A stretch of DNA of 64,000 nt from Patescibacteria group bacterium (GCA_028705565.1 JAQWDH010000005.1:5803-69802); one strand, 5' to 3'. Counted from the first letter of the stretch, positions 4,346 to 33,622 are shown. The notes: a model not told the origin generated them from the sequence alone. Numbers and translations are program-made.

Positions 4346-5101
4346 ATGCTCTCTCCGCGAGCCGAACAACTTATAACTGAATATCTTAATCTCCCCTTTC
4401 CTGGCGTTATCGGCGCGCGCTGTCCGTATTTTAACAACATCCGCTCCAAGCAACGCGCCCAACTTGGGGTTTTAATCGGCAAAGGAAGTCCTCTGGAAAT
4501 AATTGAAGAAGCGCAAATTATCGCCACCCAATATCGCGCCAAAGAAATTTTGTCTTCAACCCCTGAAAAAATACGCGAGTTTCTAATCAATAATAATCTC
4601 GGGATTGAATGTTCCGGTTTTGTAACGCGCGTTTTATCCGCGCACTTCCGAGAAACCGCCGGCGTTGATTTAATTAAAAAATTATTTATCGTGTCGCCAA
4701 AATATTTTTTGCGCTGGATCATTACCAAATTAAGGCCGATTGAAAATATCAACGTAAATGTCTACGCGAACGATAAAAACACGAAAAAAATAAAATGGCG
4801 AGACGCGCGCGCCGGAGATGTGATAATATTTCTTGGTACGAACTCGCGTTACAATCGCAATCACATTATTTTAATAACCGAAAAAAACGACCAAACCGCG
4901 AAATATGCCCACGCGCGAGCTTGGGCAAGCGAAGGAAAATACGGACATGGGGTCTGCGAAGGTGAAATCAAAACCGTAAACCCAAACGGAGAAATCATTG
5001 AACAAACATGGGTTGAAAAAAACAAAATCGGATCGGAAAATGAAACTTATTTGGAAGCTGTACAGGCCAAAACCGTGGAAATAAGAAGAATTAAAATTTA
5101 A
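4346..5101 (+). CDS. Hypothetical protein, possible papain-like cysteine peptidase (NlpC/P60/CHAP-like?)
   Basis: 251 aa; candidate catalytic Cys in GIECSGFVTRVL and His in NRNHIILITE; family assignment weak. Confidence 0.3.
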   Translation: MLSPRAEQLITEYLNLPFPGVIGARCPYFNNIRSKQRAQLGVLIGKGSPLEIIEEAQIIATQYRAKEILSSTPEKIREFLINNNLGIECSGFVTRVLSAHFRETAGVDLIKKLFIVSPKYFLRWIITKLRPIENINVNVYANDKNTKKIKWRDARAGDVIIFLGTNSRYNRNHIILITEKNDQTAKYAHARAWASEGKYGHGVCEGEIKTVNPNGEIIEQTWVEKNKIGSENETYLEAVQAKTVEIRRIKI

Positions 5102-5121
5102 TTCTTATTGAATTTTAAACT

Positions 5122-6252: not shown

Positions 6253-6255
6253 TTT

Positions 6256-6903
6256 ATGTCTTCTTATTTGACTTGGGACAGAATTAAAAATACGGATTTT
6301 TCCGAAACAAAAATAAACTCGCTTTACAACGAAGGGTATCTTTTTACGCGAATCGGAAAAGGCATCATGGACCAAACAAGAAGCGCGCGGATTGATTTGA
6401 ATAAATTCAATTTATCAAGCGAAAACAAACGGATATTGAAAAAAATGGAAAACGCGCGAATGGAAATAAAACCGATTCCATTGCTTGATTATGAATGGTC
6501 GGTGCATAAAATGGGAAAAGATTTTTATGAAAAAAAATTCGGGCCCGAAATTTTCAGTGCGCAAAAAATAAAAGAATTGATTACTGACAAAGAAAAAAGC
6601 AATTTTAACCGGCTGTTCGTTTTTTCAATCAATGACAAACCGGCTGGTTATTGCATCACTCTTGAAACCGACGAAATTTTGCATTATTCTTATCCCTTTT
6701 ATCAGCTATCGCTCCACATCGGCATGGGCATGATGACCAAGGCGGTGGCATGGGCAAAAGAAAAAAACAAAAAATATGTTTATCTTGGTTCGGCGCAACG
6801 CCCGACTGACGTTTATAAATTTCAATTTGAAGGCATGGAGTGGTTTGACGGCAAACAATGGATGAATGACATTAAAAAACTTAAAGAAATATTAAAAAAT
6901 TAA
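6256..6903 (+). CDS. Aminoacyl-tRNA-dependent transferase-like protein (ATE_C/Bpt-like GNAT fold; Fem-like alternative)
   Basis: 215 aa; C-terminal YVYLGSAQRPTDVYKFQFEGMEWFDGKQW resembles ATE_C/Bpt signature; sits in peptidoglycan gene context. Confidence 0.4.
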   Translation: MSSYLTWDRIKNTDFSETKINSLYNEGYLFTRIGKGIMDQTRSARIDLNKFNLSSENKRILKKMENARMEIKPIPLLDYEWSVHKMGKDFYEKKFGPEIFSAQKIKELITDKEKSNFNRLFVFSINDKPAGYCITLETDEILHYSYPFYQLSLHIGMGMMTKAVAWAKEKNKKYVYLGSAQRPTDVYKFQFEGMEWFDGKQWMNDIKKLKEILKN

Positions 6904-6928
6904 TGATATAAATTATTTTGCATATAGA

Positions 6929-7017
6929 GCTAAAATATTTTTTTATCTTTTTATTACCAACCGCCCGCAGGCGGCGGTCCTGAAAGGCCGTTTAAAAAGA
7001 TAAAAAAATATTTTAGC
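6929..7017. repeat. Structured intergenic element: about 24-bp AT-rich inverted repeat enclosing GC-rich hairpins
   Basis: gctaaaatatttttttatcttttt ... aaaaagataaaaaaatattttagc are exact reverse complements; inner ccgcc-cgcag-gcggcgg and ggcc hairpins. Confidence 0.7.
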
Positions 7018-7041
7018 GATATCGCGGAATTCTAATAAATT

Positions 7042-8421
7042 ATGAAACACATTCACTTTATCGGAATATGCGGCGTGGGTATGAGCGCGCTGGCTATACT
7101 CTGGCAAAAAAAAGGGTGGAAAGTCACCGGTTCAGATGCCGGATTTTTTCCGCCGATTTCAACTCATCTGAAAAAACACGGGATTGAATTTTACCCGGGA
7201 TGGCATCCGGAAAAAATGACCGGACAAGAAGGGTCTCTGCCCGATTTGGTTGTAGTCGGCAACGTGGCGGCTTCTGAAAATCCGGAATGGAAATTCACGC
7301 TTGAAAATAAAATTCCTTATGTTTCTTATCCTGAACTTATAGCGAAAAACTTGGTTAAAAAAAATTCTATCATCTGCGCCGGAACTTACGGCAAAACTTC
7401 CACAACGGCCATACTCGCTTGGATTTTAAAAAACGCGAATTATAAACCTTCATATATGTTCGGCGGTTTGAGTTTGGATATGGAAGAAAGCGCCGACGAT
7501 TTAGGCGGAGATTGGAGCATATTGGAAGGAGACGAATATAAAGCAAGTAGATGGGACAACCGAGCCAAGTTTTTTTCTTATCAACCGACGCATCTTTTGC
7601 TTACGGCGACTGAATGGGACCACGCGGATATTTACCCGACTGAAAAAGATTATTTTAACGCTTTTCGCGAGTTGATAAAAATAATTCCGGAAAACGGATT
7701 GATTGTCATTTCGGAAAATGTTCCTGAGAGCATAATATCTTTGTCGCGCGCAAAAATTTTAAAATACGGAAAAAAAGAAAATTGCGATTATGGATATTCG
7801 GATGTTAAAATCGATAAAAACGGAATCGCTTTAAAAATAACTTTCGGAAATTCTCATTTTTTCGTTTCATCCAATGTAATTGGAGAATACATGGCTGAAA
7901 ATATCTGCGGAGCGTTCGCTTTGGCGCGCGAAATCGGAATCGCGCCGGAAACGATTATCAAATCGCTCGCCGATTTTAACGGGTTGAAAAGAAGGATGGA
8001 AAAAAGAGGAAAAACTCAATCTGGAGCGGATGTTTTTGACGATATCGCCCACTCGCCAGCGAAAGCCAAGTCGGTTCTGGAAACATTAAAAAAAATATAT
8101 AACGGCAAAATTTACGCGATTTTTGAGCCGAACACCGGAAACCGCCAGCCGCAATCCGCGCCGCAATACGATTACGCTTTTGCCGCGGCCGACGAAGTTA
8201 TAATTCCGCGCCTTACAAAAATAAAATCATCCGAGGAACAAAAACACTTGAATGGCGGCGAATTGGCCAACATTATATTTCGCTCGCATAGCGCGGTAAA
8301 ACACATTGAGGACGACGATTACTTGATAAATTACATAAAACAAAAAACACAGCCGCGAGACGCTGTCGTGTTTCTGGGTAGCCATGGTTTCAGAGGAATG
8401 ATTGAAAAAATATTAGATTGA
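7042..8421 (+). CDS. murC: Mur ligase family: UDP-N-acetylmuramate--L-alanine ligase MurC or murein peptide ligase Mpl
   Basis: 459 aa; N-terminal HFIGICGVGMSALA and central Mur ligase domain GTYGKTSTT. Confidence 0.7.
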   Translation: MKHIHFIGICGVGMSALAILWQKKGWKVTGSDAGFFPPISTHLKKHGIEFYPGWHPEKMTGQEGSLPDLVVVGNVAASENPEWKFTLENKIPYVSYPELIAKNLVKKNSIICAGTYGKTSTTAILAWILKNANYKPSYMFGGLSLDMEESADDLGGDWSILEGDEYKASRWDNRAKFFSYQPTHLLLTATEWDHADIYPTEKDYFNAFRELIKIIPENGLIVISENVPESIISLSRAKILKYGKKENCDYGYSDVKIDKNGIALKITFGNSHFFVSSNVIGEYMAENICGAFALAREIGIAPETIIKSLADFNGLKRRMEKRGKTQSGADVFDDIAHSPAKAKSVLETLKKIYNGKIYAIFEPNTGNRQPQSAPQYDYAFAAADEVIIPRLTKIKSSEEQKHLNGGELANIIFRSHSAVKHIEDDDYLINYIKQKTQPRDAVVFLGSHGFRGMIEKILD

Positions 8422-8435
8422 TGTTGAAGCTGAAT

Positions 8436-8600
8436 TCACTTGCCCTCGTCAACAACTTCTGTTTTTACTTCATCGCCGTCAATTGAAACAATCTGCAAAG
8501 TAATACCGCAAATATCGCATTCAATCACATGACCGGCGGCCAAATTCGGATAATTTGACAAATTGATTTCATTTTTACATTCTAAACAAATAAGTTTCAT
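8436..8600 (-). CDS. Small zinc-ribbon protein, LysW-like (not in ORF track; 54 aa)
   Basis: Own translation: MKLICLECKNEINLSNYPNLAAGHVIECDICGITLQIVSIDGDEVKTEVVDEGK; CxxC...CxxC with acidic tail, pattern like LysW/ArgW carrier proteins but ends in Lys, not Glu. Confidence 0.4.
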   Translation of the reverse strand: MKLICLECKNEINLSNYPNLAAGHVIECDICGITLQIVSIDGDEVKTEVVDEGK

Positions 8601-8662
8601 AAAAAAATGAATTATGAATATCCAACTAAAATAGTATATAATAAAAACGCAAAAAAGTAAAT

Positions 8663-9562
8663 ATGTTAACTCCTCAATTTAAAACTCCCCGACTCGCTAA
8701 AATAATTGGGTTAAAAAACGAATTATATCTTAAACGAGAGGACTTGCATCCTTATGGTTCGCACAAGGGACGCTCAATTCCTTTAATGATTGAAAAATAC
8801 GCCAAAGAAAAGCTGCGCGATTTTGTCGTTTCGTCTTCCGGCAACGCCGCGCTGGCCTCGGCTTTATATATTTCAGAATATAACAAACGGCATCCGCAAA
8901 AATCTCTTACTTTAAAAATATTCGTCGGAAAAAATATTGAAAAAGAAAAAATGAAAAATTTAAAAAGAACAATTCGCGGCAAAAAATTCATAATTCTATC
9001 GCAAACAGCGAACCCGAAACAATCGGCTTTTCAGATGGAAAAAAATAATTTGGCAAAAAACTTGCGGCAGTCAACGGATGATAGCGCTTTAATCGGCTAT
9101 AAAAAATTGGCCGCTGAATTATCAAAAATAAAAAATTTATCCGCCGTGTTCATCCCTACTTCCAGCGGCGCGACCGCGCAGGCGATTTATCTTAGTTTTA
9201 AAAAAATCGGAATCAATCCGCAAATTCACATTGTTCAAACTACCGCCTGTCACCCAATCGCCGATGAAATTAACAAAGACGAAGAACAAACGATTGAAAA
9301 TACAAAAAAATCTTTGGCATCCGCCATCGTTGATAAAATAGCTCACAGAAAAAAAGAGGTGTCGGAAGCGGTAAAAAAAAGCAACGGCGACGGCTGGATA
9401 ATAAATGACCAAGAAATAAAAACCGCGATAAAAATAACTGAAAAAACGACCGGCATTAAAATCTCGCCAAACAGCGCGTTGTCCATGGCCGGCCTATCGC
9501 AAGCCGTAAAACAAGGTCGTCAATTCTCCGGTTCGGTCGTTTGTCTGCTCACTGGAAAATAA
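8663..9562 (+). CDS. PLP-dependent enzyme, fold-type II (ThrC/CysK/TrpB-like)
   Basis: 299 aa; LHPYGSHKGRS with candidate PLP lysine, Gly-rich SSSGNAALA loop. Confidence 0.5.
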   Translation: MLTPQFKTPRLAKIIGLKNELYLKREDLHPYGSHKGRSIPLMIEKYAKEKLRDFVVSSSGNAALASALYISEYNKRHPQKSLTLKIFVGKNIEKEKMKNLKRTIRGKKFIILSQTANPKQSAFQMEKNNLAKNLRQSTDDSALIGYKKLAAELSKIKNLSAVFIPTSSGATAQAIYLSFKKIGINPQIHIVQTTACHPIADEINKDEEQTIENTKKSLASAIVDKIAHRKKEVSEAVKKSNGDGWIINDQEIKTAIKITEKTTGIKISPNSALSMAGLSQAVKQGRQFSGSVVCLLTGK

Positions 9563-9595
9563 TTAAAAAAGGAAGGTTTTGTCCTTCCTATGACT

Positions 9596-9778
9596 TTAAT
9601 TGTATTTTTTTTCTTCTCCTTCTTCCATATCCTCCCCTGCTTCTCCTGCATACTCCCTGAGCAGGGAGTCTTTGTTTTTAATTTTCTTTTCTTTTTCTTC
9701 TTTTTCTTCTTCTTTTTTTTCCGACGACCACGGGTCGTCATTTTCATTCAAAAAAATATTATTGTTGGGTTTGGTCAT
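9596..9778 (-). CDS. Small highly acidic Lys/Glu-rich protein (60 aa)
   Basis: Perfect SD aggagg 6 nt upstream of ATG on minus strand; low-complexity KE-rich product; three short hairpins in region. Confidence 0.4.
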   Translation of the reverse strand: MTKPNNNIFLNENDDPWSSEKKEEEKEEKEKKIKNKDSLLREYAGEAGEDMEEGEEKKYN

Positions 9779-9880
9779 TTTTTTCCTCCTTCCGCCAAAG
9801 GCGGATAAATATAAAATTTTTTATGCAAAGACCGTATAATTTTGTATTAAACTACATTTTTTATTTTTTGTCAATATCGC

Positions 9881-11941
9881 CTATTCTCTTATCATTACTA
9901 TCTCATCCGCGCCGTCAAAATTTACGTCAACGGCTTCCAAATAAATTTTATTCGCTCCGAAAAGCAATGGAGCGCCAAACTCTGATATTTTTTTGCCTTT
10001 TTGATTATAAACCATTATTAAAAAATTCTTGCCTGAATTAAAACCAGCTATTATCTCGTCCTTTCCATCTTTATTAACATCCCCGCTCGCCAACGCGAAA
10101 TTTTTATTGCCGCTTTTCGCTTTTTTCATATCAATCGTAAATTTTATTTTCAAACGCGCCAAAGAATTATCATATATGAAAATTTCGCCAGTGCTTTCTT
10201 TGCCGGCTATGAATTCCGCTGTCCCGTCGCCGTCTATGTCTCCGCTTGCTATTTTCACTGCTCCGACATATTTTTTTCCAACCGGATAAAATCCTTCGTT
10301 TAAAATAGCTCCGCTGTAATCGTATTTAATAATCTTTCCGCCGGTTGGGGAAGCCAAAAAAATTTCGTCAGTTTTTTGTTTTGTTTCCGTGTTCACCGCG
10401 AGCCCGATATCCCCTGCCATATTTCCGCTAAACGGATAATCGCTAAACCAACGTCCTCCAACACTGTTATAAATTTCCACTTTGCCTCCCTTGATGATTA
10501 TTTTTTCTTCCCTTCCGTCTCCGTTCAAATCTCCGCTATAAATTTTTACGCCTCCGGAAAACCCTTCTTCATAAATAAAAAATCCGTTACGCGCGCGTCT
10601 GCCTTTGATATCAAAAAAACTCGCGAATCCTCCATTGATAAATACTGTGTCTCGCGCCGTTTGAAAAGTTTTTAACAAAAGCAGTCCTTCTTTCGCGTTT
10701 AATTTTATTTTACTGACGATGGAACCGTCGTTGGCTTCCGCATCTTGCGAGCCGATTATTTTTTCGTATTCGCCTCCCAAATCCACCTCTGCGGATTTGT
10801 CGGACGAATTTACCAACACTATCCCGTTGGTAAAATCACGCCGCCAAACATCGCGTTGAAAATCCGTTTTACCTGACAAGGATCGCGCTTCGGATACTGC
10901 TTTGCCCAAATTTATCTCGTATTCGTCATACCACCAAACTTGACCGTGGTCCTTGTCGCCATAATCAAAAGAATAATACCCATTTCCCAAAAGCGCGCTC
11001 GCGAGTCCAAAACGCATTTCTTTGTAACTTTCTTTTCCGCCTTTATTGGCAGTATTATTGTTTATGATTAAAACTCTCGGCAATGGCTTTCCATTTTCAA
11101 ATGAAACGTATTTTTCCATGCTCGCCTGCCAATCGCCGGCTGAAAAATTTTCCACCATCAACCCGTTCAAATCATCCTTGTAAATCTCTCCGGCGCCATT
11201 GCCGACGATAATAAAATTATTTCCCGCCGACGCTCGCGTTTCATTAAAAAGAATTTTCATTCCGGCTCGCCAACGCTCATTCGCGTCCGCGTCAACTTTG
11301 CCGTCTTTGTCCAAATCAATTCCGGTAGAAAGCCAATTTACGCTATCCCACGAATTATCGTAAAAAATTCCGTCCCACAAACCGGTTGACAAAATTTCGT
11401 TCACCGCGAATTTCGCGAGATACTCGTTCCATCGCAATCCTCCGGCGCGCGGACAATTATCAGCAGGATTAAGCATCCATGTTTCCGGCCAAAAAACCAA
11501 ACGCTGTCCTTTCGTATCGGTCAAATACCATTTTTCGGAAATTCCGCTCGCCAATTTTCTTCTCATTTGACTGTAAGACGAAACAGCGTCTTGCCGTATT
11601 TCCTCTGTGGTGATATACGCCAAAATTTTTATATTCGGATTCAATTGCCTGATTTTTTTCAAAGTTTCTTTGCTTTTTATCTGCAGTTCCATATCTAAAA
11701 TCAGCAAGTCCCATTTTGCCAAATCCGAAGCGCGCGAAATATCAATCTCCCAAGTCAAATAATAATTCGCCCTTTTTGGAAAATTGTTTTTTTCCGCTGT
11801 AAAAACGCGCGTCGGTAAAAACAAAGACGCCGCGGCGAGAACCGCGAAAAAATAACTTAAAAAATATTTTTTTCGGATAAAAATCATGTTTTTAAATATC
11901 GTATTCTTTTTTAGACAACAAATCGTCATAAATTCTTTCAA
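9881..11941 (-). CDS. Secreted putative glycoside hydrolase (GH114/GHL-like TIM-barrel N-domain) with C-terminal FG-GAP repeats
   Basis: Signal peptide MIFIRKKYFLSYFFAVLAAASLF (true start likely near 11887); repeats GDLNGDGREE, GDIDGDGTAEF, GDVNKDGKDEI, VDVNFDGADEI. Confidence 0.55.
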   Translation of the reverse strand: MKEFMTICCLKKNTIFKNMIFIRKKYFLSYFFAVLAAASLFLPTRVFTAEKNNFPKRANYYLTWEIDISRASDLAKWDLLILDMELQIKSKETLKKIRQLNPNIKILAYITTEEIRQDAVSSYSQMRRKLASGISEKWYLTDTKGQRLVFWPETWMLNPADNCPRAGGLRWNEYLAKFAVNEILSTGLWDGIFYDNSWDSVNWLSTGIDLDKDGKVDADANERWRAGMKILFNETRASAGNNFIIVGNGAGEIYKDDLNGLMVENFSAGDWQASMEKYVSFENGKPLPRVLIINNNTANKGGKESYKEMRFGLASALLGNGYYSFDYGDKDHGQVWWYDEYEINLGKAVSEARSLSGKTDFQRDVWRRDFTNGIVLVNSSDKSAEVDLGGEYEKIIGSQDAEANDGSIVSKIKLNAKEGLLLLKTFQTARDTVFINGGFASFFDIKGRRARNGFFIYEEGFSGGVKIYSGDLNGDGREEKIIIKGGKVEIYNSVGGRWFSDYPFSGNMAGDIGLAVNTETKQKTDEIFLASPTGGKIIKYDYSGAILNEGFYPVGKKYVGAVKIASGDIDGDGTAEFIAGKESTGEIFIYDNSLARLKIKFTIDMKKAKSGNKNFALASGDVNKDGKDEIIAGFNSGKNFLIMVYNQKGKKISEFGAPLLFGANKIYLEAVDVNFDGADEIVMIRE

Positions 11942-13118
11942 TTTCGCGGATGTTTTTCTTTATGTCAAAATTTCCACGCGCGTATTCCCTGGCTTTTTCG
12001 CCCATTCTTTTGCCTTCGTCTTTACGCAAAAACAAAAACCTTACGGCATCTGCGATTTGCACCGCGCTTCCTGCTTTAACCAAAATGCCGGTTTCATCGG
12101 GTTTTATCAATTCTTCTCCTGCCGGAACGGACGCTACAACGCACCTGCCGGATGCCATGGCTTCCATTACAGCCAAACTTAATCCTTCCCACAAAGATGG
12201 CTGAATTACAACATCTATCCATTCGTAAAATCGCGTAATATCGTCAATATTTCCATGCCACGCGATTCTATTTTCAATCCCCAATTTTTTAGCTTCAATC
12301 TTCAATTTATCCCGCAAAGAGCCGTCTCCAAAAATTTCCAATCTCCACCAATCCATATTTTTAAGAGTTGAAAGAGCCCTGAAAAGATATATATGCCCTT
12401 TTTGCTGCTCCAATCTACCGACAATCGCCAAACGCAATGCTTTGTCTTGAAAAAAACATTCGGTCGGAACCGCCAAACATTTTTCCAAATCAATGCCGTT
12501 GCGTATCATTTTTATTTTATTTTCTTTTATATTAAAATTCGCGCGGCAATACACGCCCACTCCGTCTGACACTGCGATTATTTTATCGGCCGAGCGCAAA
12601 ATATATTTCCAAATAAAACGCCGTAAAAAAGAAGTTTGCCATTCAACATTATGCTGTGTGGAAACCCATTTAATTTTGCGTTTTGAAAAAAACAAAAGCA
12701 GGTAAGCGACAAGGTCTCCGCCAAAAAGATGACTGTGTATCAAATCGGGTTTAAATTCCTCAACATATTTTTTCAATGATTTGAAAACCGCCCATCTTCC
12801 GCCTTGTCTTGAACGCGAACCGACAAACAAATTAATGTCCAAACTTTCAAATTGCGGACGCAAACATCCATCTTCAACGGAGCTCGCGACGATTATCTCA
12901 TATTTTTCCTTATCCAAAAAACGCGCGTAATGCCAAACAACGCGTTCCGCTCCTCCGACATTGAACGCCGGTATGATATGCAAAATTTTTTTCTTTTTGA
13001 CTATCATATTTTTGAAACGAATTTCTTTTTTCGCGCGAAATTTATTCTTAAATTCGCGAACAACGTTTCGGAACTGTAAGCGATACTTTGCGCCACTGCC
13101 AAAGCGATGGGCACCCAC
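11892..13118 (-). CDS. Glycosyltransferase family 4 (GT-B fold)
   Basis: EGLSLAVMEAMASGRCVVAS motif; true start probably MIVKKKKILHIIP near 13007. Confidence 0.8.
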   Translation of the reverse strand: MGAHRFGSGAKYRLQFRNVVREFKNKFRAKKEIRFKNMIVKKKKILHIIPAFNVGGAERVVWHYARFLDKEKYEIIVASSVEDGCLRPQFESLDINLFVGSRSRQGGRWAVFKSLKKYVEEFKPDLIHSHLFGGDLVAYLLLFFSKRKIKWVSTQHNVEWQTSFLRRFIWKYILRSADKIIAVSDGVGVYCRANFNIKENKIKMIRNGIDLEKCLAVPTECFFQDKALRLAIVGRLEQQKGHIYLFRALSTLKNMDWWRLEIFGDGSLRDKLKIEAKKLGIENRIAWHGNIDDITRFYEWIDVVIQPSLWEGLSLAVMEAMASGRCVVASVPAGEELIKPDETGILVKAGSAVQIADAVRFLFLRKDEGKRMGEKAREYARGNFDIKKNIREIERIYDDLLSKKEYDI

Positions 13119-14479
13119 ATTTTGCTTGAATAAAACTGCGTGTTAAAAAGCTGAAAAACAAGCGGCGACAAAACCAAAAATAACGAAACGAAATAAGCCA
13201 AACGCGCCTCTTCGGTATAACGTTCGTCTCTATATCTTTTGTAAATAATAAAAACAATCCAACCGATAAACAAACCGAACGTCAAAAGACCGAATATTCC
13301 CTGCTCGGCCAAAAGTTTTTGCGCGATTCCGTGCGCGTCCAACGGGTCGCCGAATTCAAAACGAAACACGCCTATTTCTCCGGCGCGCGACAAAAAACTT
13401 CCTATACCTTGTCCGATAAACGGATGTTCTTTAAATAAAAACCAAGAAATGTTGGCGAGATACCAACGCGCCGCGGTTGAACTGCGGACAATCGGACTTG
13501 CTGTTAAAAAATACACGAGATAAACGAAAAGCGGAACAATAAAAAATGCGATTAAAAATTGAAATTTCCGCGCGTATTTTTTAAAATCTATTTTTTTACG
13601 CATCAAATAAACGAACACAACCGCCTCCACCGCCATTGTAAGCCAACCTGCGCGAGACAAAGTTAAAAGACCGATGATTAAAACAAATATCGTCGCCGCG
13701 CCGTAATATTTCCCACGCGCGGTGTTTTTATTTTTATACCAAAAATACAAAAATATCGGCAAGACGGAAGTTATCGTTTCGGCGAGAAAAATATGTTGGT
13801 CGCCGAAAGGCGCCCATCCGCCGATTGAGAACGGAGCGGCTCGGCGCATTCCGCCGGCTACAGCCCCCCATCCGAAAACGAAAGAAACAAATCCCATTGC
13901 CGCGCCCAAAAAACCGATTGACGCGAAAACAGCCAAACTTTTTTCCCAAATCTTTTTATCGTTCGCTATGTTCGCGCCGAGCATCACATAACCGAAATAA
14001 AATAATAAAAGAAAATGAAAAATATATTTTATTCCTCCAGCGATTTCAACAGACGACAAATTAATGAGCGACACGACAGCTGATAAAATAAAAAGCGCAA
14101 ACAAATGAAAACCCGGCAAGTTCACCTGTTCTGATTCGCCTTTGAAAAATCCACGAAATTTATTTATTACAAACGCGATTAAAAGCAAAATCGCCCAAAA
14201 TTCCACTGCCGGCGCGTTGACTTGTTCCAATCTGTAAAAACCTGAAAAAAAGGAAGGAAATTGTTCAAAACTTATAACCCAGTTGATGAGCGGTGAAATA
14301 AAAACCAAAATATACCAACCGATGTCTAAACGGTAAGAAACAGCCCAAGCCAAAAATAAAATGAAAAACACGGCCAAAGGCAAATATCCAACCCAAATAT
14401 AAAGCAGAACAAAACACAAAAACAGCAAAACAAAGCCAAAAAACTTGAAGGCCGTCTTTTTGTAAGAAATTTCCTTCAT
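13004..14479 (-). CDS. O-antigen ligase/Wzy-like polytopic membrane protein
   Basis: 491 aa, about 12 TM; Wzy_C-like LTLSRAGWLTMAVE motif. Confidence 0.55.
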   Translation of the reverse strand: MKEISYKKTAFKFFGFVLLFLCFVLLYIWVGYLPLAVFFILFLAWAVSYRLDIGWYILVFISPLINWVISFEQFPSFFSGFYRLEQVNAPAVEFWAILLLIAFVINKFRGFFKGESEQVNLPGFHLFALFILSAVVSLINLSSVEIAGGIKYIFHFLLLFYFGYVMLGANIANDKKIWEKSLAVFASIGFLGAAMGFVSFVFGWGAVAGGMRRAAPFSIGGWAPFGDQHIFLAETITSVLPIFLYFWYKNKNTARGKYYGAATIFVLIIGLLTLSRAGWLTMAVEAVVFVYLMRKKIDFKKYARKFQFLIAFFIVPLFVYLVYFLTASPIVRSSTAARWYLANISWFLFKEHPFIGQGIGSFLSRAGEIGVFRFEFGDPLDAHGIAQKLLAEQGIFGLLTFGLFIGWIVFIIYKRYRDERYTEEARLAYFVSLFLVLSPLVFQLFNTQFYSSKMWVPIALAVAQSIAYSSETLFANLRINFARKKKFVSKI

Positions 14480-14523
14480 ATATATCCATTATACCAAAAA
14501 TTTCGCATTTAGAGAAAAAGAAA

Positions 14524-14548
14524 GGGGGTTACACACAGGCAACCCCCA
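14524..14548. terminator. Bidirectional rho-independent terminator hairpin gggggtt-acacacaggc-aaccccc
   Basis: 7-bp GC stem with T-runs on both strands, downstream of the minus-strand gene ending at 14736. Confidence 0.6.
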
Positions 14549-14555
14549 AAAAATT

Positions 14556-14732
14556 TTGTCATTCCGATCCGCCCGGGGCGGAGAGAAATCTCTGCCGGTT
14601 ATTGTAAACCGGACAGAGATCCCTCGTTTCACTCGGGATGACACTTAAGTTTTTGTCATTCCGACGAAGGAGGAATCCCTGTCGGTTATTGTAAACCGGA
14701 CAGAGTTCCCTCGTTTCACTCGGGATGACACT
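14556..14732. repeat. Two tandem copies of palindromic MITE-like element (gtcattccga ... tcgggatgac termini; inner ctctg-ccggtt...aaccgg-acagag)
   Basis: Copy 1 14556-14645, copy 2 14653-14732, about 85% identical; termini and inner palindromes read directly. Confidence 0.8.
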
Positions 14733-14735
14733 TTC

Positions 14736-15875
14736 TTACAACCATCCACACTCCACCTTCCACCCCTCCTCCTCCTGGGGTGTCCATATGCATGGGTCTT
14801 GTTGACCTGTCTCGTCAACAAGACCATCGCAATCATTATCAAATGAATCGCCCGTGGTGTCGTGCATCCACGGGTTGTTCAATATTGACCCGTCGGTCCG
14901 GAAGAAAAAAAACGAACCTTCTGGACACTGGGTCTCTGTTAAAATAAATAATTTTCCAGTATCCTCTAGACACACTGTCCACTCCTCCAAATCGGTGGGG
15001 TCATCGTCGCAATCTCCACCCCACCAGACCTCGCACAACCTATTAACAGAATCAATGCACGGCGCCACCTCGCAGTGGCAATCTCCGTCATCGTCTGTAT
15101 TATCTTCACAATCTTCATCTGTATCATTATTACAATTACTATCAATATCATCTCCGCATATCTCTTCTGCGGCCGGGTTTATATTTGAATTAATATCGTC
15201 GCAATCCGGTCCTAACTCACAATTTTCTCCATAGTTATCGCCGTCGTTGTCTATGCATTCAAGAATAACAATTTCTCTTATACCGGCAAACATGAATGCC
15301 GGTTCATTATGAACTGTGGAGCACCTTGGGTCCACCCCGTCACAATTTTCATCAATTCCATTTCCGCATATTTCTGTTGCACTTGGATTGATAAAAAACG
15401 AAGTATCGTCGCAATCTTCCGGCGACAAAAAATTGTCGCCGTCACGGTCGCAAACATTGAGGTCGTCAACCTCAAGATTGCAATTATCATCAATTCCGTT
15501 ACCACATATTTCTGTTGCGCCGTGATGAATGCGTGGATTTCGCGGAGCACAATCAGTTTCGTTCGGATCTCCGTCATTATCAAAATCATCCGAAGGACAC
15601 GCGGCGACGATTCCGTCGCAGTCCTCGTCAATTCCATTTTCGCAGATTTCTGTTGCGCCAGGATTTATCTCTGAATCATTATCATCACAATCTGGTCCCA
15701 ACTCACAATCTTCACCATAATTATCACCGTCGTTGTCTATACAACTATTATTATCGCAGTTATTAGAGCCATAGCATGGCTCATAGCAGCTATTGATTGA
15801 GATCAATATACTCAACCCTACAAAAAAGAAAAACAAAAAAATAATACTGATAATAATATTTCTTTTTCCTATCAT
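14736..15875 (-). CDS. Membrane-anchored Cys-rich repeat protein, MopE-like putative metal-binding motif repeats
   Basis: N-terminal TM; at least 5 repeats of DNDGDNYGEDCELGPDCDD..INP.A.EICGNGIDE.CDG; codon usage visibly GC-richer than neighbours. Confidence 0.6.
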   Translation of the reverse strand: MIGKRNIIISIIFLFFFFVGLSILISINSCYEPCYGSNNCDNNSCIDNDGDNYGEDCELGPDCDDNDSEINPGATEICENGIDEDCDGIVAACPSDDFDNDGDPNETDCAPRNPRIHHGATEICGNGIDDNCNLEVDDLNVCDRDGDNFLSPEDCDDTSFFINPSATEICGNGIDENCDGVDPRCSTVHNEPAFMFAGIREIVILECIDNDGDNYGENCELGPDCDDINSNINPAAEEICGDDIDSNCNNDTDEDCEDNTDDDGDCHCEVAPCIDSVNRLCEVWWGGDCDDDPTDLEEWTVCLEDTGKLFILTETQCPEGSFFFFRTDGSILNNPWMHDTTGDSFDNDCDGLVDETGQQDPCIWTPQEEEGWKVECGWL

Positions 15876-15970
15876 AAAAAACCTCCCGCCCGTCCGCTTT
15901 TAAGCCGACGATACATTTGTTAAGGGCTAAACAACCCATAGAAAGGATGTGTTTAGCGCGAGCTTTCTTA

Positions 15971-15996
15971 TGTCTATAGTCTATAGACTATAGACT
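15971..15996. promoter_or_regulatory. Three closely spaced palindromic CTATAG hexamers upstream of the Cys-repeat gene
   Basis: t-ctatag-t-ctatag-a-ctatag-acta read directly, about 95 bp upstream of start at 15875. Confidence 0.4.
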
Positions 15997-16008
15997 ATTT
16001 AATTGTCA

Positions 16009-16173
16009 AAGAATACGCAAGTATAGCATATTTTAGCTGTCATCCTGAACACAGTGAAGGAACTCTGTCTGTTGTTGTTTAATCAATTGGACAGAGATTC
16101 TTCGCTTTGCTCAGAATGACAATTAACAAAACTCGCTAAAAGTTCAAAGAATACGCAAGTATAGCATATTTTG
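16009..16173. repeat. MITE-like palindromic element (gtcatcctgaac...tgctcagaatgac) flanked by 28-bp direct repeats caaagaatacgcaagtatagcatatttt
   Basis: Direct repeats at 16009-16036 and 16146-16173; inner element 16037-16131 has ctctgtc/gacagag inner palindrome like the 14556 family. Confidence 0.75.
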
Positions 16174-16289
16174 ACGATTTTGTCAAGTTTTTAAGCGCTT
16201 TTTTCGCTTGTTTTAAGCAAAAAACCGCCTTTTGGGCGGCAAATTTGGATGTTGATTTTACCTTATTTTGGTAAAATTTATTTTTTAAA

Positions 16290-17219
16290 TCAGAAACCGC
16301 GGCAATCAAAAAATTTTTTTCTTATTGCTAAACGACAATCGTTCTCGTGCAACTTAATAATTCCATCGCCAAAAATCACACCTTTGTCGCCGGCTACGGC
16401 TTTTTCTTTCACGGAAAATTTTATTTTTGCCAACTGCCATTCCCGCGCTTGTTTTTCAATCATATTTCCATACGCCACTGCCCACATTTTTTCCCACGCT
16501 TTTTTCCAACAAACGGCAAACAGTGTATCGGACACCGAAACTCTGCTTGTAAAATTCGCTTCTTTAAAGATATACGGCAAAAATTTTTCCACCCAATTAT
16601 TGGCATTTAAAAATTTTTGATAATAATTCAGCGGGTCATACAACGGAATCATTCGCCTCGTCCAATAAGCGAAATGTATATCGTCTTCCTCAATTCTGCA
16701 ACGCGATAAATCCAAATTGTCTTCGTCAATAAAAAACGAAAGACAAATTTTGTCGGCTTGTTTGGAGCCGTAAGTCCTCATTCCGAAAACGCGCAAAATA
16801 AGATTCGCGAAAAATCTCACAATCCAAACTCGCCCACGCGCCGCGACTATCAAAAAATCTATATCACTTTCCTTTGTCGCCTCTTCGGCGCCGACTGAAT
16901 TGCAAACGAACACCGCTCGTAAAAAAGGTATGGAACGAATTTTTTTAATCGCGCGTTTGGCTATTTTAATTTTTATTTCGCTCTCAACCAAAGCCGCCCG
17001 CCTTTTCTCCGTGATTTCATTTCTTCCTGGCAAAAAATAATATCCGCATTTCGTTTCCACCGAATTTTCATTTTTAATTTTTTCCAATTCATTTAAAAAA
17101 TCTTCATAACTTACTCGCGGCGGACGCCACAAAAATTCAAAAAGTTCCTCTTTTGTTAAGGGATAATCAAAAAAATTGAAGTATGACAATGTTTGAATTA
17201 TGGAAGATTTTAAATCCAT
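16290..17219 (-). CDS. Nucleotidyltransferase-domain protein (pol-beta-like minimal NTase)
   Basis: 309 aa; VFVCNSVGAEEATKESDIDFLIVAAR resembles G[SG]x9-13DxD NTase motif. Confidence 0.45.
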   Translation of the reverse strand: MDLKSSIIQTLSYFNFFDYPLTKEELFEFLWRPPRVSYEDFLNELEKIKNENSVETKCGYYFLPGRNEITEKRRAALVESEIKIKIAKRAIKKIRSIPFLRAVFVCNSVGAEEATKESDIDFLIVAARGRVWIVRFFANLILRVFGMRTYGSKQADKICLSFFIDEDNLDLSRCRIEEDDIHFAYWTRRMIPLYDPLNYYQKFLNANNWVEKFLPYIFKEANFTSRVSVSDTLFAVCWKKAWEKMWAVAYGNMIEKQAREWQLAKIKFSVKEKAVAGDKGVIFGDGIIKLHENDCRLAIRKKFFDCRGF

Positions 17220-20733: not shown

Positions 20734-20862
20734 TTTTTTCTCCCTTTTTTAATCTTTTTTTTATATTTTAAAGGACCGCTTAATTTAAATTAAACCATAT
20801 TTAAAAAATTTGGTCAATCGCCTGTACAATACAGGACTGTCGCCGAATGTGTTTGTCATTCC

Positions 20863-20992
20863 GACCATAGCGAAGCGAAGTGGAGGAATCCCTCTTACGG
20901 TCAATGGACGACTGGCGACAGACGACGGACAGACAAAAGGGATTCCTCCACTCATTTCATTCGGTCGGAATGACAGAATGAAATGATTTTTG
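20863..20992. repeat. Palindromic MITE-like element (gtcattccgacc...ggtcggaatgac; inner gtggaggaatccc...gggattcctccac)
   Basis: Outer and inner inverted repeats read directly; ORF-track ORF 20785..21012 lies inside it. Confidence 0.8.
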
Positions 20993-22498: not shown

Positions 22499-23999
22499 AT
22501 AATAATTTGTTTACCACCCAAACAATAAACCCGTATATTGCGACCATTCCCCACCACGGAAGAAAAAAATCCATCGCGGATAAATTCCAACCGCCTATTT
22601 TTTCCGCTATCATTATAACATAATTCAAACCGATGCCCACAATCCAGGCGACAACTTGCCCGAAAGGAAACCAAACAAAACTCAAAACAACAGCCAAAAA
22701 ACCGAAAAACATCAAATAAGGAACAATCCACAAAATCAAAACATTGGCTACCGGAGCGATCGCGGATAATCGACCGAATTGAAATAAAATCAGAGGCAAG
22801 GTGGCGATAATGGCGGAAAAAGTCGGAGCTAAAATTTGTTTAAACAACGAGGATTTGTTTTTTCCACCTAAAAACGGACTTAGATAAACGATTCCGGCGG
22901 TTGCCAAAAAAGACAACTGAAATCCCGCGTCCCAAACAAGAACATACGGATTAAACAAAAGCATCAACGCCGCCGCCAAAGCCAAAACATATCCTACGCG
23001 CGATAATCTGCCTAAACGCTCGGCGATTAAAAGCACAACACCCATAATTCCGGCGCGCATAACCGAAGCTGAAGCGCCAGTAAAAATGACAAAAACGCAA
23101 ATACCAAAAATCGCAAGCCAAAAAGCTTGACGCCTGTATAATCCGGCTGAAACCAAAAAAATCATAAAAGCCGCGGCAATAATGTTTATATTATAACCTG
23201 ACACAGCGACAATATGCGAAATGCCGGCTCTATTAAAATTTTCTTTCAAATCATCGGGTATTCCGGAACGCGCGCCGTAAAGCAATCCTGATAAAAGTCC
23301 GCTGTCCGGTTCAGGCCATAATTTTTCTATCTGTTCGTTTATCCTAGTTTTTAACCGTAAAATATTTTTTAAAACAAAATTTCCCTCGTCCGCGCCGATT
23401 TTTTCAATTTTCGCGTTTACGCATATTGACCAAATTCCGTCTTTCGCCAAATATCTGTCGTATCTGAAATTTCCATCAGGACTGTTTCGCGGACTTTTCA
23501 AATCGCACGATATTTTTAACTTATCTCCATATTCGTAGCGTGGATACAACAGGCCTTCAACTAACGCGCGTCCGGAAACTTTTTTATTGGAAGACGCTTC
23601 TAAATCATAAATAAATTCTGTTTTAATAATATATTTAACGCTGTCAGGACGGATGTCCGGCTCGCCCACCACCCAACCTATGATTTTTCCTCTCTCTCCG
23701 TTGTAATATAAAATGTTTTTCGCGTCTCCGGATGGAACGCTAATAAAAAAACGAATAGCTCCCAAAACAAAAAATAAAACGCAAAAAAACAAAAATCTGC
23801 TGTTTATATTTTTCCAAAAAATCGCAATCGCGAAAACCAAACACCAAAAAACAACAAATAAATAAAATAAAATATTTTTTTCAATGTCCGAATAAGAAAA
23901 AATGCCGACTCCTGAAATAAAACAAAAACAGAGCATAAGAAATGCCCCGCTTTTTGAATTGATAATTTTTTCAACAACATTCTCTTTCCGAAATGTCAT
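22485..23999 (-). CDS. comEC: ComEC/Rec2 DNA-uptake channel, membrane domains only (DUF4131 + competence domain)
   Basis: 504 aa polytopic; OB-fold-like N-region and competence-domain helices; MBL domain encoded separately at 21032..21877. Confidence 0.65.
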   Translation of the reverse strand: MTFRKENVVEKIINSKSGAFLMLCFCFISGVGIFSYSDIEKNILFYLFVVFWCLVFAIAIFWKNINSRFLFFCVLFFVLGAIRFFISVPSGDAKNILYYNGERGKIIGWVVGEPDIRPDSVKYIIKTEFIYDLEASSNKKVSGRALVEGLLYPRYEYGDKLKISCDLKSPRNSPDGNFRYDRYLAKDGIWSICVNAKIEKIGADEGNFVLKNILRLKTRINEQIEKLWPEPDSGLLSGLLYGARSGIPDDLKENFNRAGISHIVAVSGYNINIIAAAFMIFLVSAGLYRRQAFWLAIFGICVFVIFTGASASVMRAGIMGVVLLIAERLGRLSRVGYVLALAAALMLLFNPYVLVWDAGFQLSFLATAGIVYLSPFLGGKNKSSLFKQILAPTFSAIIATLPLILFQFGRLSAIAPVANVLILWIVPYLMFFGFLAVVLSFVWFPFGQVVAWIVGIGLNYVIMIAEKIGGWNLSAMDFFLPWWGMVAIYGFIVWVVNKLLYVKN

Positions 24000-26900
24000 A
24001 CCACAATGCTAACCAATTTTCCTTTTACATAAATTATTTTTTTCGGCTCTTTGCCTTCCAGCCATTTTTGAATTTTTTCACTCGCGAGCGCTTGTTTTTT
24101 AGCTTCTTCTTCGCTTATCTCCGCTGGCGCGATTAAACTATCGCGAACCTTGCCGTTCACCTGCACAACCAAAATAATTTCGTTCTCCATTGCCGATTTG
24201 GCGTCATATTCAGGCCATTTTTCAAAAATTACGCTTTTTTTATGCCCCAACAAACTCCAGATTTCTTCGCAAAAATGCGGGGCGAACGGCGATAATATCT
24301 TAATAAATAAAGAATAATGTTCAATTGATATTGTTTCTTGTTTTGATAATTCATTTGCTAACTCCATCATTTTCGCGATAGCCGTGTTAAAGCGCATCGC
24401 TTCAATGTCTTCGGTGACTTTTTTTATTGTTTGATGAAGCACAGATGTTATTTTGTCATTGCGAGGATTCGCCCAGGGCGAAGATGAAGCAATCCCGTCA
24501 TTTTTTTGTTTAGTTTTGCTTTTAACGACACGGTCAAAAAGAAACCACACTTTCTCCAAAAATCTTTTAGTTCCAACCAATCCGTTGGTATTCCAAGCGC
24601 ACGGCTGACTGAAGGGACCCATAAACATTTCATAAACGCGCATCGCGTCAGCTCCAAATTCCTTTACCACATCGTCCGGGTTTATCACGTTTCCCCAACG
24701 TTTGCTCATCTTGCGACCGTCTTCGGCTAAAATCAATCCGACGCTTTGTAATTTTTCAAACGGCTCTTCTTTATTAACAACGCCGATATCATATAAAAAT
24801 TTATGCCAAAAACGAGCGTAAATAAGATGACGCGTGGCGTGCTCGGCTCCACCGACATAAAAATCAACCGGAAGCCACCAATCAAACGCTTTACTGTAAT
24901 TGGAAATTGGAAAATTGCCTGCCTGCCGGTAGGCAGGGAAATTGGAAATTTTTTTCATGATATACGCGAGATAATACCAACACGACCCAGCCCATTGGGG
25001 CATCGTGTTGGTTTCTCGTTTCGCCGGTCCTCCGCATTTAGGACATTTTACGTTCACCCATTTTTGAATTCCGGCAAGCGGCGACTCGCCCGTGCCTGTC
25101 GGAACATAAGATTTCACATTAGGAAGCTTTATCGGCAATTTATCTTCCGGTATCGCCATCCAACCCGGATTTAATCGTTCACCATTGGAAATTGTCTCCT
25201 TTCGGGAGATATCCTGTGGGAGAAAATTTTCCATTGATTTTTTACACGCTGGGCAAAAAATCAATGGTATTGGTTCTCCCCAATAACGTTGTCTGGAAAA
25301 AACCCAATCGCGCAATTTATAATTTATTTTCCGTTCCCCATATTTTTTGTCTTCCAACCATTTGATTATTTTTTCTTTCGCCTCTTTGGTTGATAAACCG
25401 TCCAAAAATGTTGAATTAACCGACAGTCCATCGCCCGTATAAGCGCTATTTTTTACGAATTTTTCAAAAAGATAATGATGCAGAGGGTCTTTTACTTTTT
25501 CATCCGCTTCTTTTTCAGTTATCCATTCCAATTTGAATTTGTCTTTTTCCTTATCTGTTAAATTTTGCCCTCCATTTTTTTCGTCAGACAATTCAAAAAA
25601 CAAACCGACTGCTTCTATTTCACGATTTACATTTTTAGAGGCGGCAAAATAATGATGATGAATTTTTTCCGATTCGGCTATTAATTTTACATTTTTATAT
25701 CCTGTTTCTTCTTCAATTTCCCTTTGAGCGCATTTAACCGCGTCCTCTCCGTCTTTTAATCCTCCGCCGATAAATAAATTTCCTCCAAATTTTTCGCCCC
25801 AATTCAAAGAAAGAAGTTTATTGTTTTTTGGGTCGCGCACCAATGCCACGATACTGCGACGAAATTCCTCATTGTCTTTTTTCTGTCCGGTAATCGGCTC
25901 TACCACGGTTTTAATCGGCAATCCGTATTTTTTCGCGAATTCCATATCTCTGTCGTCATGCGCCGGCACGGCCATAACAGCTCCGGCGCCATAACCTCCG
26001 ATTACATAATCGGCGACAAAAATAGGCAATTCCTCGCCGTTGACCGGATTTATCGCTTTAATACCTTTAATTTCAACGCCGGTTTTGTCTTTTTGCAGTT
26101 CGCTTCGTTCCAAAACCGTTTTGTGTTTTGCTTTTTCAACATACGCGGCTATGTCAGCGAAATTTTCAATTTTCCTGCCTACCGGTTTACATACCGTAGG
26201 TATGTTTACATACCGTAGGTATGCAGGGAGACAATTTTCAATTAAAGAATGCTCAGGGGCGACAACAACATAAGTCGCGCCGAATAAAGTATCCGGACGA
26301 GTGGTAAAAACCTCCAAAATGTCATTGCGAGGAATTCCCGAAGGGGATGACGAAGCAATCCCACTGTTACCATTATAATTGTTATAAGATTGCTTCGCTT
26401 CACTCGCAATGACAAAACGCACTGTCGCTCCTTCGCTTCTGCCAATCCAATTTTTTTGCATTTCCTTAATCGCTTCAGGCCAATTTTTCAATTTATCCAA
26501 ATCATTTAACAGCCGTTCGGCGTAATCGGTAATTTTTAACACCCATTGTCTCATTGGCTTCTGCTCAACAGCGGAACCGCAACGCTCGCATTTTCCATCC
26601 TCCAAATCCTCATTTGCCAAACCTGTCTGGCACGACGGACACCAATTTATCGGAGCGTATGATTCATAAGCCAAACCTTTTTTAAACATTTGCAAAAACA
26701 TCCATTGCGTCCATTTATAATATTCCGGATCCGTTGTATTTATTTCCCTGCTCCAATCATAAGTAAAACCCAAAAGTCCAAGCTGTTTTTTGAATATCTT
26801 GATATTTTTTTCAGTCGCTACGCGTGGATGAACTTTATTTTTAATGGCGTAATTTTCCGCCGGCAAACCGAAAGCGTCCCATCCCATCGGATGCAAAACA

Positions 26901-33595: not shown

Positions 33596-33622
33596 TTATT
33601 GTGCTAAAGCCACACAACACTT

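Follow-up and report, generated by a model that had tools for sequence, protein, structure and literature searches.

The stretch of DNA analyzed here comprises 64,000 nucleotides of a Patescibacteria group bacterium (GCA_028705565.1, JAQWDH010000005.1:5803-69802; the whole stretch is called the window in the following) and carries on its minus strand a gene (15875..14736) for an acidic, cysteine-rich protein of 379 amino acids with repeats of the PF11617 (Cu-binding_MopE) type. We assume, with a probability of roughly 0.55, that this protein is a resident, Magasanikbacteria-specific and fast-changing surface lipoprotein encoded beside envelope-glycan genes, and not a recent import or a copper protein. 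The reading is carried by a C-terminal module that is restricted to one lineage, by the conserved position of the module-bearing genes next to a block of glycan genes and by the parallel divergence of the module and its neighbours. A resident lipoprotein of an attachment type also fits the precedent from the candidate phyla radiation (CPR), in whose genomes large, Cys-rich extracellular proteins are known that vary between strains and for which a role in attachment has been proposed (PMC4736985).

The open reading frame itself was read directly from the sequence and starts with an ATG that is preceded at a distance of 6 nt by the ribosome-binding site GGGAGG (15882..15887, minus strand), so that the 379-amino-acid product of the original prediction is real; including its stop codon the coding sequence spans 14736..15875. 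The product is identical to the NCBI entry 'MAG: putative metal-binding motif-containing protein [Patescibacteria group bacterium]', and positions 4736-16113 of the window are identical in an independent Logan assembly (SRR22315502), whose contig ends within the upstream repeat element. Taken alone, the gene is an ordinary, already annotated member of a known repeat class. What is new is the family defined by the C-terminal module, the conserved locus, the GC-rich islands in relatives and the rewired, hairpin-rich leader.

To judge from the sequence comparisons, it is the C-terminal module of 115-120 amino acids and not the MopE repeats that defines this family. In the window protein it covers residues 258-379 (14739..15104, minus strand) and consists of a fifth PF11617 unit that is interrupted by about 45 residues with a beta-hairpin insert, ends with ...C-x-W...V-x-C-x-W-L and is mildly rich in GC at third codon positions (GC3 of 0.54). 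An exhaustive search of residues 265-379 against 1.84 billion representative proteins returned only 26 matches, and every named match belongs to Candidatus Magasanikbacteria. About 12 of the listed matches cover most of the module and lie at most 12 residues from the C-terminus, with the exception of P0123 (59 residues). The window module, at the extreme C-terminus of its protein, is 36-50% identical to 12 members, and the module alignment (A3) contains 15 invariant columns, five of them cysteines. The remainder of the relatives differs and consists of Dicty_CTDC repeats, DUF7151, peptidase M23 or nothing recognisable; the source name of one cluster member is 'Glycosyl hydrolases family 16'. 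Eight of the 14 retrieved members begin with a lipobox-like signal such as AVLGC, VAAGC, ALGAC or LATGC.

The family became visible only by this exhaustive search of representatives. A word-indexed protein search gave no candidates with the module alone and two proteins with the module alignment, a profile search of the PDB sequences was empty, and Pfam contains no model for the module itself. A metagenome scan with the module alignment, which was reduced to the generic peptide pattern DN[DN]C[DN]GxxDE, retrieved no family members but three loci of 68-71% GC that carry the usual MopE repeats. Modelled alone, the module reached a predicted local distance difference test (pLDDT) score of 85.6 and a predicted template modelling score of 0.77, and Foldseek found no significant structural neighbour in the PDB or in the BFVD viral library. 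We infer that the module is a functional head tied to the adjacent envelope-glycan genes. A diversity-generating retroelement acting on the module was also considered and dropped, since the module is the conserved and not the variable part; a reverse-transcriptase domain is absent from the Pfam calls of the locus genes, and a template repeat was not searched for.

The position of the module-bearing genes is conserved. In the window and in the loci L031 (GCA_018652595.1), L032/L033 (like L031 from Candidatus Magasanikbacteria), L036 and L038 of other genomes, the gene is located directly upstream of a Wzy_C-(methyltransferase)-GT4-GHL15/FG-GAP block; in L032, genes for PALP and Mur ligase follow this block, in the same order as in the window. 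Compared with their window counterparts, the neighbouring proteins show 40-59% identity, and in L028/L029 three module-bearing genes adjoin the same block. Furthermore, module, Wzy_C and GHL15 run in parallel in their pairwise identities, with the highest values for the module as well as for GHL15 in the trio L031/L036/L038. Conserved position and co-divergence together indicate that the module descended with its locus, whereas the passenger region changes. The gene had originally been regarded as horizontally acquired. This is not borne out by the data, as the named relatives of the module are confined to Magasanikbacteria, the position is kept in four other genomes and the module tracks its neighbours.

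A different picture emerges on the upstream side. With the 309-amino-acid protein encoded by the preceding gene (p309, 16290-17219) as a probe, 20 Magasanikbacteria-like genomes were found to share the order NusA-YidC-(PRC)-p309, and in none of these 20 does the Cys-rich gene, Wzy_C, GT4 or GHL15 follow downstream of p309; the whole Wzy block is missing at this junction. Viewed in isolation, this absence would suggest an insertion. The presence of the locus in relatives, proposed as a check of the import, depends on the side from which it is viewed: absent at the p309 junction in 20 relatives and present beside the Wzy_C block in four other genomes. The Wzy block in the window genome happens to abut the NusA block. 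Ten of the records with NusA-YidC-(PRC)-p309 (L005, L009-L014, L016, L018 and L019) are titled 'uncultured Gammaproteobacteria bacterium'. Their NusA is 60-69% identical to that of the window and they carry the same family of hairpin elements described below, and the taxonomic labels of these records look wrong.

The N-terminal part of the protein is in line with an exported, anchored product. Residues 1-30 (15786..15875, minus strand) are modelled as a signal or anchor helix, which is hydrophobic over residues 1-27 and ends in the lipobox-like SINSC30, as expected from the N-terminal anchor that had been predicted. Lipidation of Cys30 is suggested by the SINSC motif, by the odd number of 33 cysteines (1 + 32) and by the lipobox-like signals of the relatives. 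Past the anchor the protein is highly acidic, with 63 Asp (16.6%) and 34 Glu (9.0%) in total and a net charge of -88 past residue 29. The Pfam model PF11617 matches with an E-value of 3.7e-32 and 110.7 bits over five stretches (gathering cut-off of 27 bits), which confirms the predicted repeats as four complete units (residues 45-93, 93-142, 142-185 and 207-256; 15108..15743, minus strand) and the fifth, split unit of the module. Each full unit contains a D-x-D-G-D-x-Y/F loop followed by DCDD...INPxAxEICxNGIDxxC, and an alignment of 48 sequences (47 homologues) shows the Asp and Cys residues of the four units to be invariant or conserved to at least 90%. Units 3 and 4 are separated by a 21-amino-acid linker of low confidence (186-206). 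Units 1 and 4 share 79% nucleotide identity across 116 nt, from which we conclude that one arose by recent duplication within the gene. AlphaFold models the repeats with a pLDDT above 90 and with neither helices nor strands, as would be expected of a 'wire' stapled by disulfides and ions. The even number of cysteines after the lipobox-like motif points to disulfides rather than free thiols, and the PF11617 units probably represent disulfide-knotted stalk repeats stabilised by Ca2+. In NCBIfam no family matched the protein at E-values up to 1, including the Myxococcus cysteine-rich repeat. From the Cys repeats in combination with the N-terminal anchor, the location at the surface or in the secreted fraction, as first proposed, is very likely.

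Several points weigh against a resident lipoprotein with a stalk and a head. The lipobox is non-canonical: compared with the consensus [LVI][ASTVI][GAS]C, Ile at -3 and Ser at -1 of ...LISINSC30 fit and Asn at -2 does not. A Foldseek search with the full-length model returned nothing significant in the PDB or BFVD, and the likeness to the type-3 repeats of thrombospondin-2, thrombospondin-1 and COMP, which were among the few PDB entries that surfaced, is not significant (E-values of 3-8, above 1, and a TM-score of about 0.1). The function assigned to the module rests purely on position and gene neighbourhood. The 20 relatives with NusA-YidC-PRC-p309 lack the gene at this junction, and the odd Glu codons together with the GC3 heterogeneity described in the next paragraph make some history of recombination or import likely. 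Finally, the family members in L034, L037 and L039 are located elsewhere, two of them by resolvase genes. The largest module proteins, with 1483 and 1579 amino acids (L037:1803-12452 and L039:1740-7782), adjoin genes for serine recombinases of the resolvase type as well as defence-type genes (SduA_C/U49 peptidase; CD-NTase/Cap15-like), and some family members may travel on mobile elements.

The base composition of the gene was analyzed in relation to the 43 genes of the window. According to the original prediction the codons are clearly GC-richer than those of the neighbours, which the analysis did not confirm over the whole gene. Its GC content of 0.432 exceeds that of the window (0.398), with the excess in codon positions 1 and 2, and GC3 is 0.405; at synonymous sites GC3 amounts to 0.390, which is at the window median (rank 23 of 43; window mean 0.386, sd 0.048). 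The GC content predicted from the amino acids and the codon usage of the neighbours is 0.443, with the observed value slightly lower, and the excess over the whole gene is therefore explained by amino-acid composition. The two parts of the gene differ in composition. Codons 1-255 have a GC3 of 0.34 compared with 0.418 expected (z of -2.7) and codons 256-379 a GC3 of 0.54 compared with 0.455 expected (z of +2.1), with GAG used for 11 of 13 Glu residues in the latter part (Fisher p = 3e-4 for the contrast in GC3). Across the gene 53% of the Glu codons are GAG compared with 15% in the neighbours (p = 1e-8) and 45% of the Ala codons are GCA compared with 10%, and with a z of -4.3 the codon log-likelihood is the second lowest of all 43 genes. 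As the repeat region is without alignable counterpart in the orthologous genes, this contrast in GC3 and Glu codons indicates a mosaic gene whose passenger part turns over, and in this weaker form the idea of an acquisition survives.

Composition is much more conspicuous in the relatives. In L031:745-3636, L032:6723-10172, L034:6915-8963 and L036:5806-10028 the family gene and the gene just upstream, which encodes a secreted coiled-coil or collagen-like protein, form a sharp GC-rich island with a GC content of 0.56-0.67 and a GC3 of 0.60-0.87. The neighbours of these islands (Wzy_C, GT4 and GHL15) have a GC3 of 0.27-0.43, with values around 0.3 in L031, L034 and L036. In L038 the same locus is GC-rich as a whole (0.62) and GC3 of the family gene reaches 0.93. 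The original impression of a GC-rich gene thus touches a feature of the family, of which the window gene shows a faint echo in its 3' third only. The islands could originate from high-GC import, from biased gene conversion at a site of frequent recombination or from selection; the co-divergence of the module with its neighbours weighs against recent transfer as their source.

These observations are the basis for the alternative that comes closest to the resident lipoprotein, and which we consider possible but clearly less probable: an exchange of surface-protein cassettes, in whole or in part and possibly from high-GC relatives, at a hot spot of recombination or integration upstream of Wzy_C, in which a GC-richer C-terminal segment of the window gene was joined to locally re-expanded AT-rich repeats. 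The step in GC3 within the gene and the C-terminal preference for GAG are in agreement with such an exchange, as are the GC-rich islands of the orthologues with their upstream secreted genes, the existence of a high-GC relative with the same locus and the wholly different passenger domains at orthologous positions. In addition, insertions seem to be frequent in the short gap that separates the family gene from Wzy_C. It contains a GIY-YIG gene in L032 (10491-10883), a HicAB toxin-antitoxin pair in L036 (10435-10913) and two hairpins resembling miniature inverted-repeat transposable elements (MITEs) in the window (14553-14735), and such selfish elements would fit repeated exchange. On the other hand, the parallel identities of module, Wzy and GHL15 fit vertical descent with no recent transfer, the window gene deviates in composition to a modest degree (z of about 2-2.7), and selection or biased gene conversion could equally hold GC3 high. 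Tentatively, and with clearly less confidence than in the resident lipoprotein as such, the locus upstream of Wzy_C-GT4-GHL15 may be described as a 'display cassette', in which a C-terminal module with an apparently new fold is kept and the Cys-rich passenger is freely replaced. GC-rich islands in AT-rich genomes, despite the co-divergence of the module, would then reflect a gene-specific force on the main protein for host contact or the envelope of these episymbionts, with recombination-driven biased gene conversion and repeated import of high-GC alleles as candidates. In this view the gene of the window has decayed or re-expanded, and its expression would have been rewired by MITEs and a duplicated promoter.

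The neighbourhood also allows for a closer coupling to the glycan genes. The Wzy_C domain (PF04932) is common to O-antigen ligases, O-antigen polymerases and protein O-oligosaccharyltransferases, and given the tight, repeated adjacency to Wzy_C-GT4-GHL15 in five genomes the protein might be the glycan acceptor of a PglL/PilO-like O-oligosaccharyltransferase next door or, instead of an adhesin, a structural partner of the polysaccharide machinery or one of its assembly factors. We regard this as unlikely. The Wzy_C neighbour could be assigned to no subfamily, with nothing usable in NCBIfam or the PDB, Ser and Thr account for 4.7% each of the protein and a Ser/Thr/Ala/Pro-rich acceptor stretch was not seen, and the gene has its own predicted promoter and terminator.

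The name of the Pfam family and the annotation suggest a metal-binding protein of the MopE type, as had been predicted. This part of the prediction is not supported by the comparison with the solved structure: in a search of the PDB sequences, MopE* (2VOV) aligned over its residues 2-49 only (residues 139-186 of the protein, E-value of 9.5e-5), and no match to the beta-rich domain of MopE/CorA with the Trp(kynurenine)/His/His copper site was detected in the protein. The Cu(I) ligands of MopE*, Kyn130, His132 and His203, are located in this beta domain, whereas the 46 N-terminal residues are invisible in the crystal and thus disordered or cleaved (PMC3423442). As others have noted, PF11617 covers little of the MopE/CorA sequences and, with regard to these proteins, 'lacks specificity' (PMC6189053), and a structural Ca2+ site is present in both CorA and MopE* (PMC3912023). 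The alignments place the protein in the PF11617 repeat class and not in the MopE/CorA copper family.

Could the repeats nevertheless sequester metals? The acidic Cys/Asp repeats might capture divalent metals such as Cu(II) or Zn at the surface, for which the net charge of -88 with 63 Asp and 34 Glu would be well suited, and the PF11617-containing N-terminal part of MopE* has been implicated in weak Cu(II) binding, with retention in affinity chromatography tied to the first 24 residues (PMC3423442). However, electron paramagnetic resonance did not support coordination by Cys in MopE* (PMC3423442), the even number of cysteines after the lipobox points to disulfides, the protein contains five His only, and no metal transporter or regulator is present among the neighbouring genes examined. 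True metal sequestration is therefore improbable.

A comparison with known systems helps to place the protein. With MopE/CorA of methanotrophs, the origin of the Pfam name, it shares a copy of the PF11617 motif and the secreted or surface location; in contrast, the motif occurs five times here and makes up the bulk of the protein, and the Cu(I) beta domain of MopE* is unmatched. Closer are the PF11617 multi-repeat proteins of Myxococcota, Desulfobacterota and Bacteroidota, which have the same invariant Asp and Cys residues, are 35-47% identical across the repeats and are all secreted. These 'MopE-related protein' members end in type IX secretion system (T9SS), MYXO-CTERM, fibronectin type III, LTD or other domains, whereas the window protein combines a lipobox-like N-terminus with the Magasanikbacteria-specific module, a counterpart of which was found in none of the 14 retrieved multi-repeat proteins. 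The type-3 Ca2+ repeats of thrombospondin and COMP are likewise Asp-rich, stapled by disulfides and without regular secondary structure (here according to the model), but they differ in Cys spacing and motif, and with Ca2+ binding presumed for the window protein the likeness is an analogy and not a membership. The Cys-rich extracellular proteins of Candidatus Peribacteria also belong to the CPR, have a signal peptide, many cysteines and strain variation, and were proposed to function in attachment and show a weak similarity to Myxococcus Cys-rich repeats; they are much larger (mean of about 1,655 amino acids) and stem from the phylum Peregrinibacteria (PMC4736985). A search of the literature found nothing on Cys-rich proteins of Magasanikbacteria.

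The gene is predicted to be a self-contained, monocistronic transcription unit (16186-14524, minus strand). The upstream p309 gene is closed by an intrinsic terminator (16224..16240, minus strand; a GCCGCC-CAAAA-GGCGG stem-loop followed by a T run), which indicates that an independent unit begins downstream. The best promoter-like site within 14300-16400 is P1 (16158..16186, minus strand), with TTGACA, a 17-nt spacer and the extended -10 element TG-n-TATACT (11 of 12 consensus positions). The start is predicted near 16151, resulting in a leader of about 276 nt. At the other end, an intrinsic terminator (14524..14547, minus strand; GGGGGTTGC...GTAACCCCC then TTTCTTTTTC; -16.4 kcal/mol, z of -4.5) closes the unit, and promoter, ribosome-binding site and terminators together are consistent with a monocistronic unit with hairpin-loaded 5' and 3' untranslated regions (UTRs). 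Rfam at gathering thresholds detected two tRNAs only in the whole window, and a permissive scan for RNA families in 14400-16400 gave chance miRNA-like matches to a MITE hairpin only, with no riboswitch or known leader.

The leader has an unusual architecture. Read along the minus strand, it consists of a distal 29-bp direct repeat (16144..16172) that holds the -10 region of P1, 22 nt of filler, a MITE-like element (copy C, 16038..16121; 67 bits with nhmmer, hairpin of -37.6 kcal/mol, z of -6.4) with the termini TGTCAT...ATGACA, 3 nt and the proximal 29-bp repeat (16006..16034). Both repeats are 100% identical and occur nowhere else in the window, with 0 copies expected by chance. The upstream MITE copy had been predicted with 28-bp direct repeats; the copy is present, and its repeats are 29 bp in length. 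The proximal repeat contains a second TG-n-TATACT (-10 hexamer at 16025..16020, minus strand), a possible extended -10 promoter, P2, with a weak -35 element inside copy C. Because direct repeats of 29 bp exceed the length of a classical target duplication and one of the two is separated from copy C by 22 nt, we consider it more likely that they originate from a repair or duplication event which copied the -10 region.

Downstream of the proximal repeat, the three CTATAG hexamers of the original prediction (at 15974, 15981 and 15988, 99-118 bp 5' of the ATG) are joined into a perfect 24-bp palindrome, GTCTATAGTCTATAGACTATAGAC, composed of three heptamers (T/A)CTATAG (15972..15995; RNA fold of -14.0 kcal/mol, z of -4.7). 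The palindrome is located 97-120 nt before the ATG and at about +18 to +41 relative to the presumed start of P2. CTATAG occurs three times in 64 kb, all at this place, with about 2.6 copies expected, so that the clustering is unusual and the count is not. A mismatch-tolerant search with the 17-nt core revealed no second copy in the window, the looser core CTATAGNCTATAG was absent from 23 loci of other genomes, and the 24-bp palindrome had no exact match in viral contigs. Since further copies are lacking, no regulon can be defined and we propose no regulator; the palindrome is a candidate for an operator or a 5'-UTR hairpin. The leaders of the orthologues in L031 and L032 carry unrelated long palindromes.

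At the 3' end of the gene, the two tandem MITE copies of the original prediction were recovered: copy A (14553-14647; 71 bits, hairpin of -49.1 kcal/mol) and copy B (14648-14735; 73 bits, hairpin of -38.7 kcal/mol), with right arms that are 94% identical. Copy B begins 2-3 nt past the stop codon within the 3' UTR. The elements of this family are 85-110 bp in length, with the termini TGTCATYCYGA...TCRGRATGACA and a conserved GAGGAATCTCTGTC core. A hidden Markov model built from copies A, B and C rescored them with 67-73 bits, and nhmmer found weaker copies at 20850-20979, 50647-50736 and 26317-26418, to which a hairpin scan added 560-677. These GTCAT...ATGAC hairpins of diverged subfamilies, delimited in the scan as 560-677, 20855-20974, 26321-26413 and 50638-50731, have a length of 93-120 bp and folding energies of -33 to -58 kcal/mol. 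Including the diverged copies the density in the window is about one element per 8-9 kb, and the three most similar copies all flank the gene. About 28 sites were found in the loci of relatives, at unrelated positions and often just past the p309 homologue, and from this dispersal we conclude that the family is lineage-wide and not gene-specific.

Mobility of these elements is unproven, as no consistent flanking target duplication was visible in 20 copies, no empty site was seen among the loci of relatives, and no transposase was present among about 20 window genes scanned with Pfam, although no search aimed at an autonomous partner or transposase was made. No exact match to the MITE arm was found in viral contigs, no Rfam family covers these elements, and a literature search returned nothing on MITEs in Patescibacteria. 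Well-known bacterial MITE- or REP-like palindromes in UTRs are the Correia elements of Neisseria, the enterobacterial repetitive intergenic consensus (ERIC) and the repetitive extragenic palindromes and mosaic elements (REP/BIME). They are likewise imperfect palindromes with conserved termini that occur in multiple copies between genes, are co-transcribed and form stable RNA hairpins; different from these, the elements described here have no Rfam family and no clear target-site duplication was seen. A composite transposon, in which the MITEs mobilise the gene, was rejected, because the position of the gene is conserved across genomes and the MITEs are scattered in relatives.

With synteny and co-divergence already weighing strongly against it, there is little to recommend a recent foreign import of a MopE-type copper or adhesion protein, perhaps mobilised by MITEs and controlled by a CTATAG-binding regulator: the strong PF11617 match, best full-length matches from many phyla with at most 41% identity over the repeats, the missing gene at the p309 junction, the atypical Glu and Ala codons and the three closest MITE copies around the gene are what would be expected of an import, but they are opposed by the median GC3 with a GC excess due to amino acids, the unmatched copper domain of MopE, the lineage-specific module, the adjacency to Wzy_C-GT4-GHL15 in four other genomes with a co-diverging module, and the dispersal of the MITE family at unrelated positions.

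For the resident surface lipoprotein, the following model seems feasible. The gene would be transcribed from a strong sigma70-type promoter, whose leader was presumably split by a MITE insertion or duplication event that also duplicated the -10 region, and for the MITE hairpins in the UTRs and the 24-bp palindrome an effect on mRNA stability or a role in repression is probable. The protein would be exported and anchored at its N-terminus, most likely by lipidation of Cys30. The remaining 32 cysteines could form about 16 disulfides and the Asp-rich loops (DxDGDxY...E) could bind Ca2+, so that the four PF11617 units would yield a rigid stalk with a net charge of about -88, comparable to the type-3 'wire' of thrombospondins. 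This stalk would present the conserved C-terminal head, which may bind the glycan of the neighbouring genes or attach to another cell, and a passenger region that is freely swapped or re-expanded would result in surface variation.

Patescibacteria presumably live in attachment to other cells, yet little is known about the proteins at their surface. Our results turn a gene annotated as 'putative metal-binding motif-containing protein' into a variable member of a conserved envelope locus and into a concrete, testable candidate for a determinant of surface properties or attachment in Magasanikbacteria. They also imply that the annotation 'Cu-binding_MopE' should not be read as evidence of copper biology. 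Furthermore, GC-rich islands at a fixed locus of AT-rich, reduced genomes could inform how surface variation arises.

Some additional features of the window are of interest in their own right. The leucyl-tRNA synthetase (23996-27115, minus strand, 1039 amino acids) contains a NUDIX domain at residues 418-544 right after the editing domain, which is an unusual insertion. A small atypical islet (34256-36261) is located at the tRNA-Glu and tRNA-Met genes and comprises a RhuM-family gene (34256-35251; GC3 of 0.27, codon-usage z of -4.1) and an open reading frame of 194 amino acids without Pfam match (35677-36261; GC3 of 0.49, z of -7.8), which is the strongest codon outlier in the window. Directly after the RNase Y gene, at 33615-33746, six tandem 22-bp units with a consensus of about CTGCCAGCAGGGTCGAATGAYM were found. 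About ten tandem ATTGGAC heptamers lie between PheT and DnaE in the region upstream of DnaE (42030-42105); besides (T/A)CTATAG, they are the second array of heptamers within a leader or promoter. Finally, ACGAA-rich inverted repeats of 35-36 nt with 94-97% complementarity (45683-45717, 47764-47799 and 48255-48295) are found on either side of the LemA gene and shortly before the M48 peptidase gene, and in L032 the leader of the orthologue of the surface-protein gene contains a similar ACGAA-rich palindrome (7805-7892).

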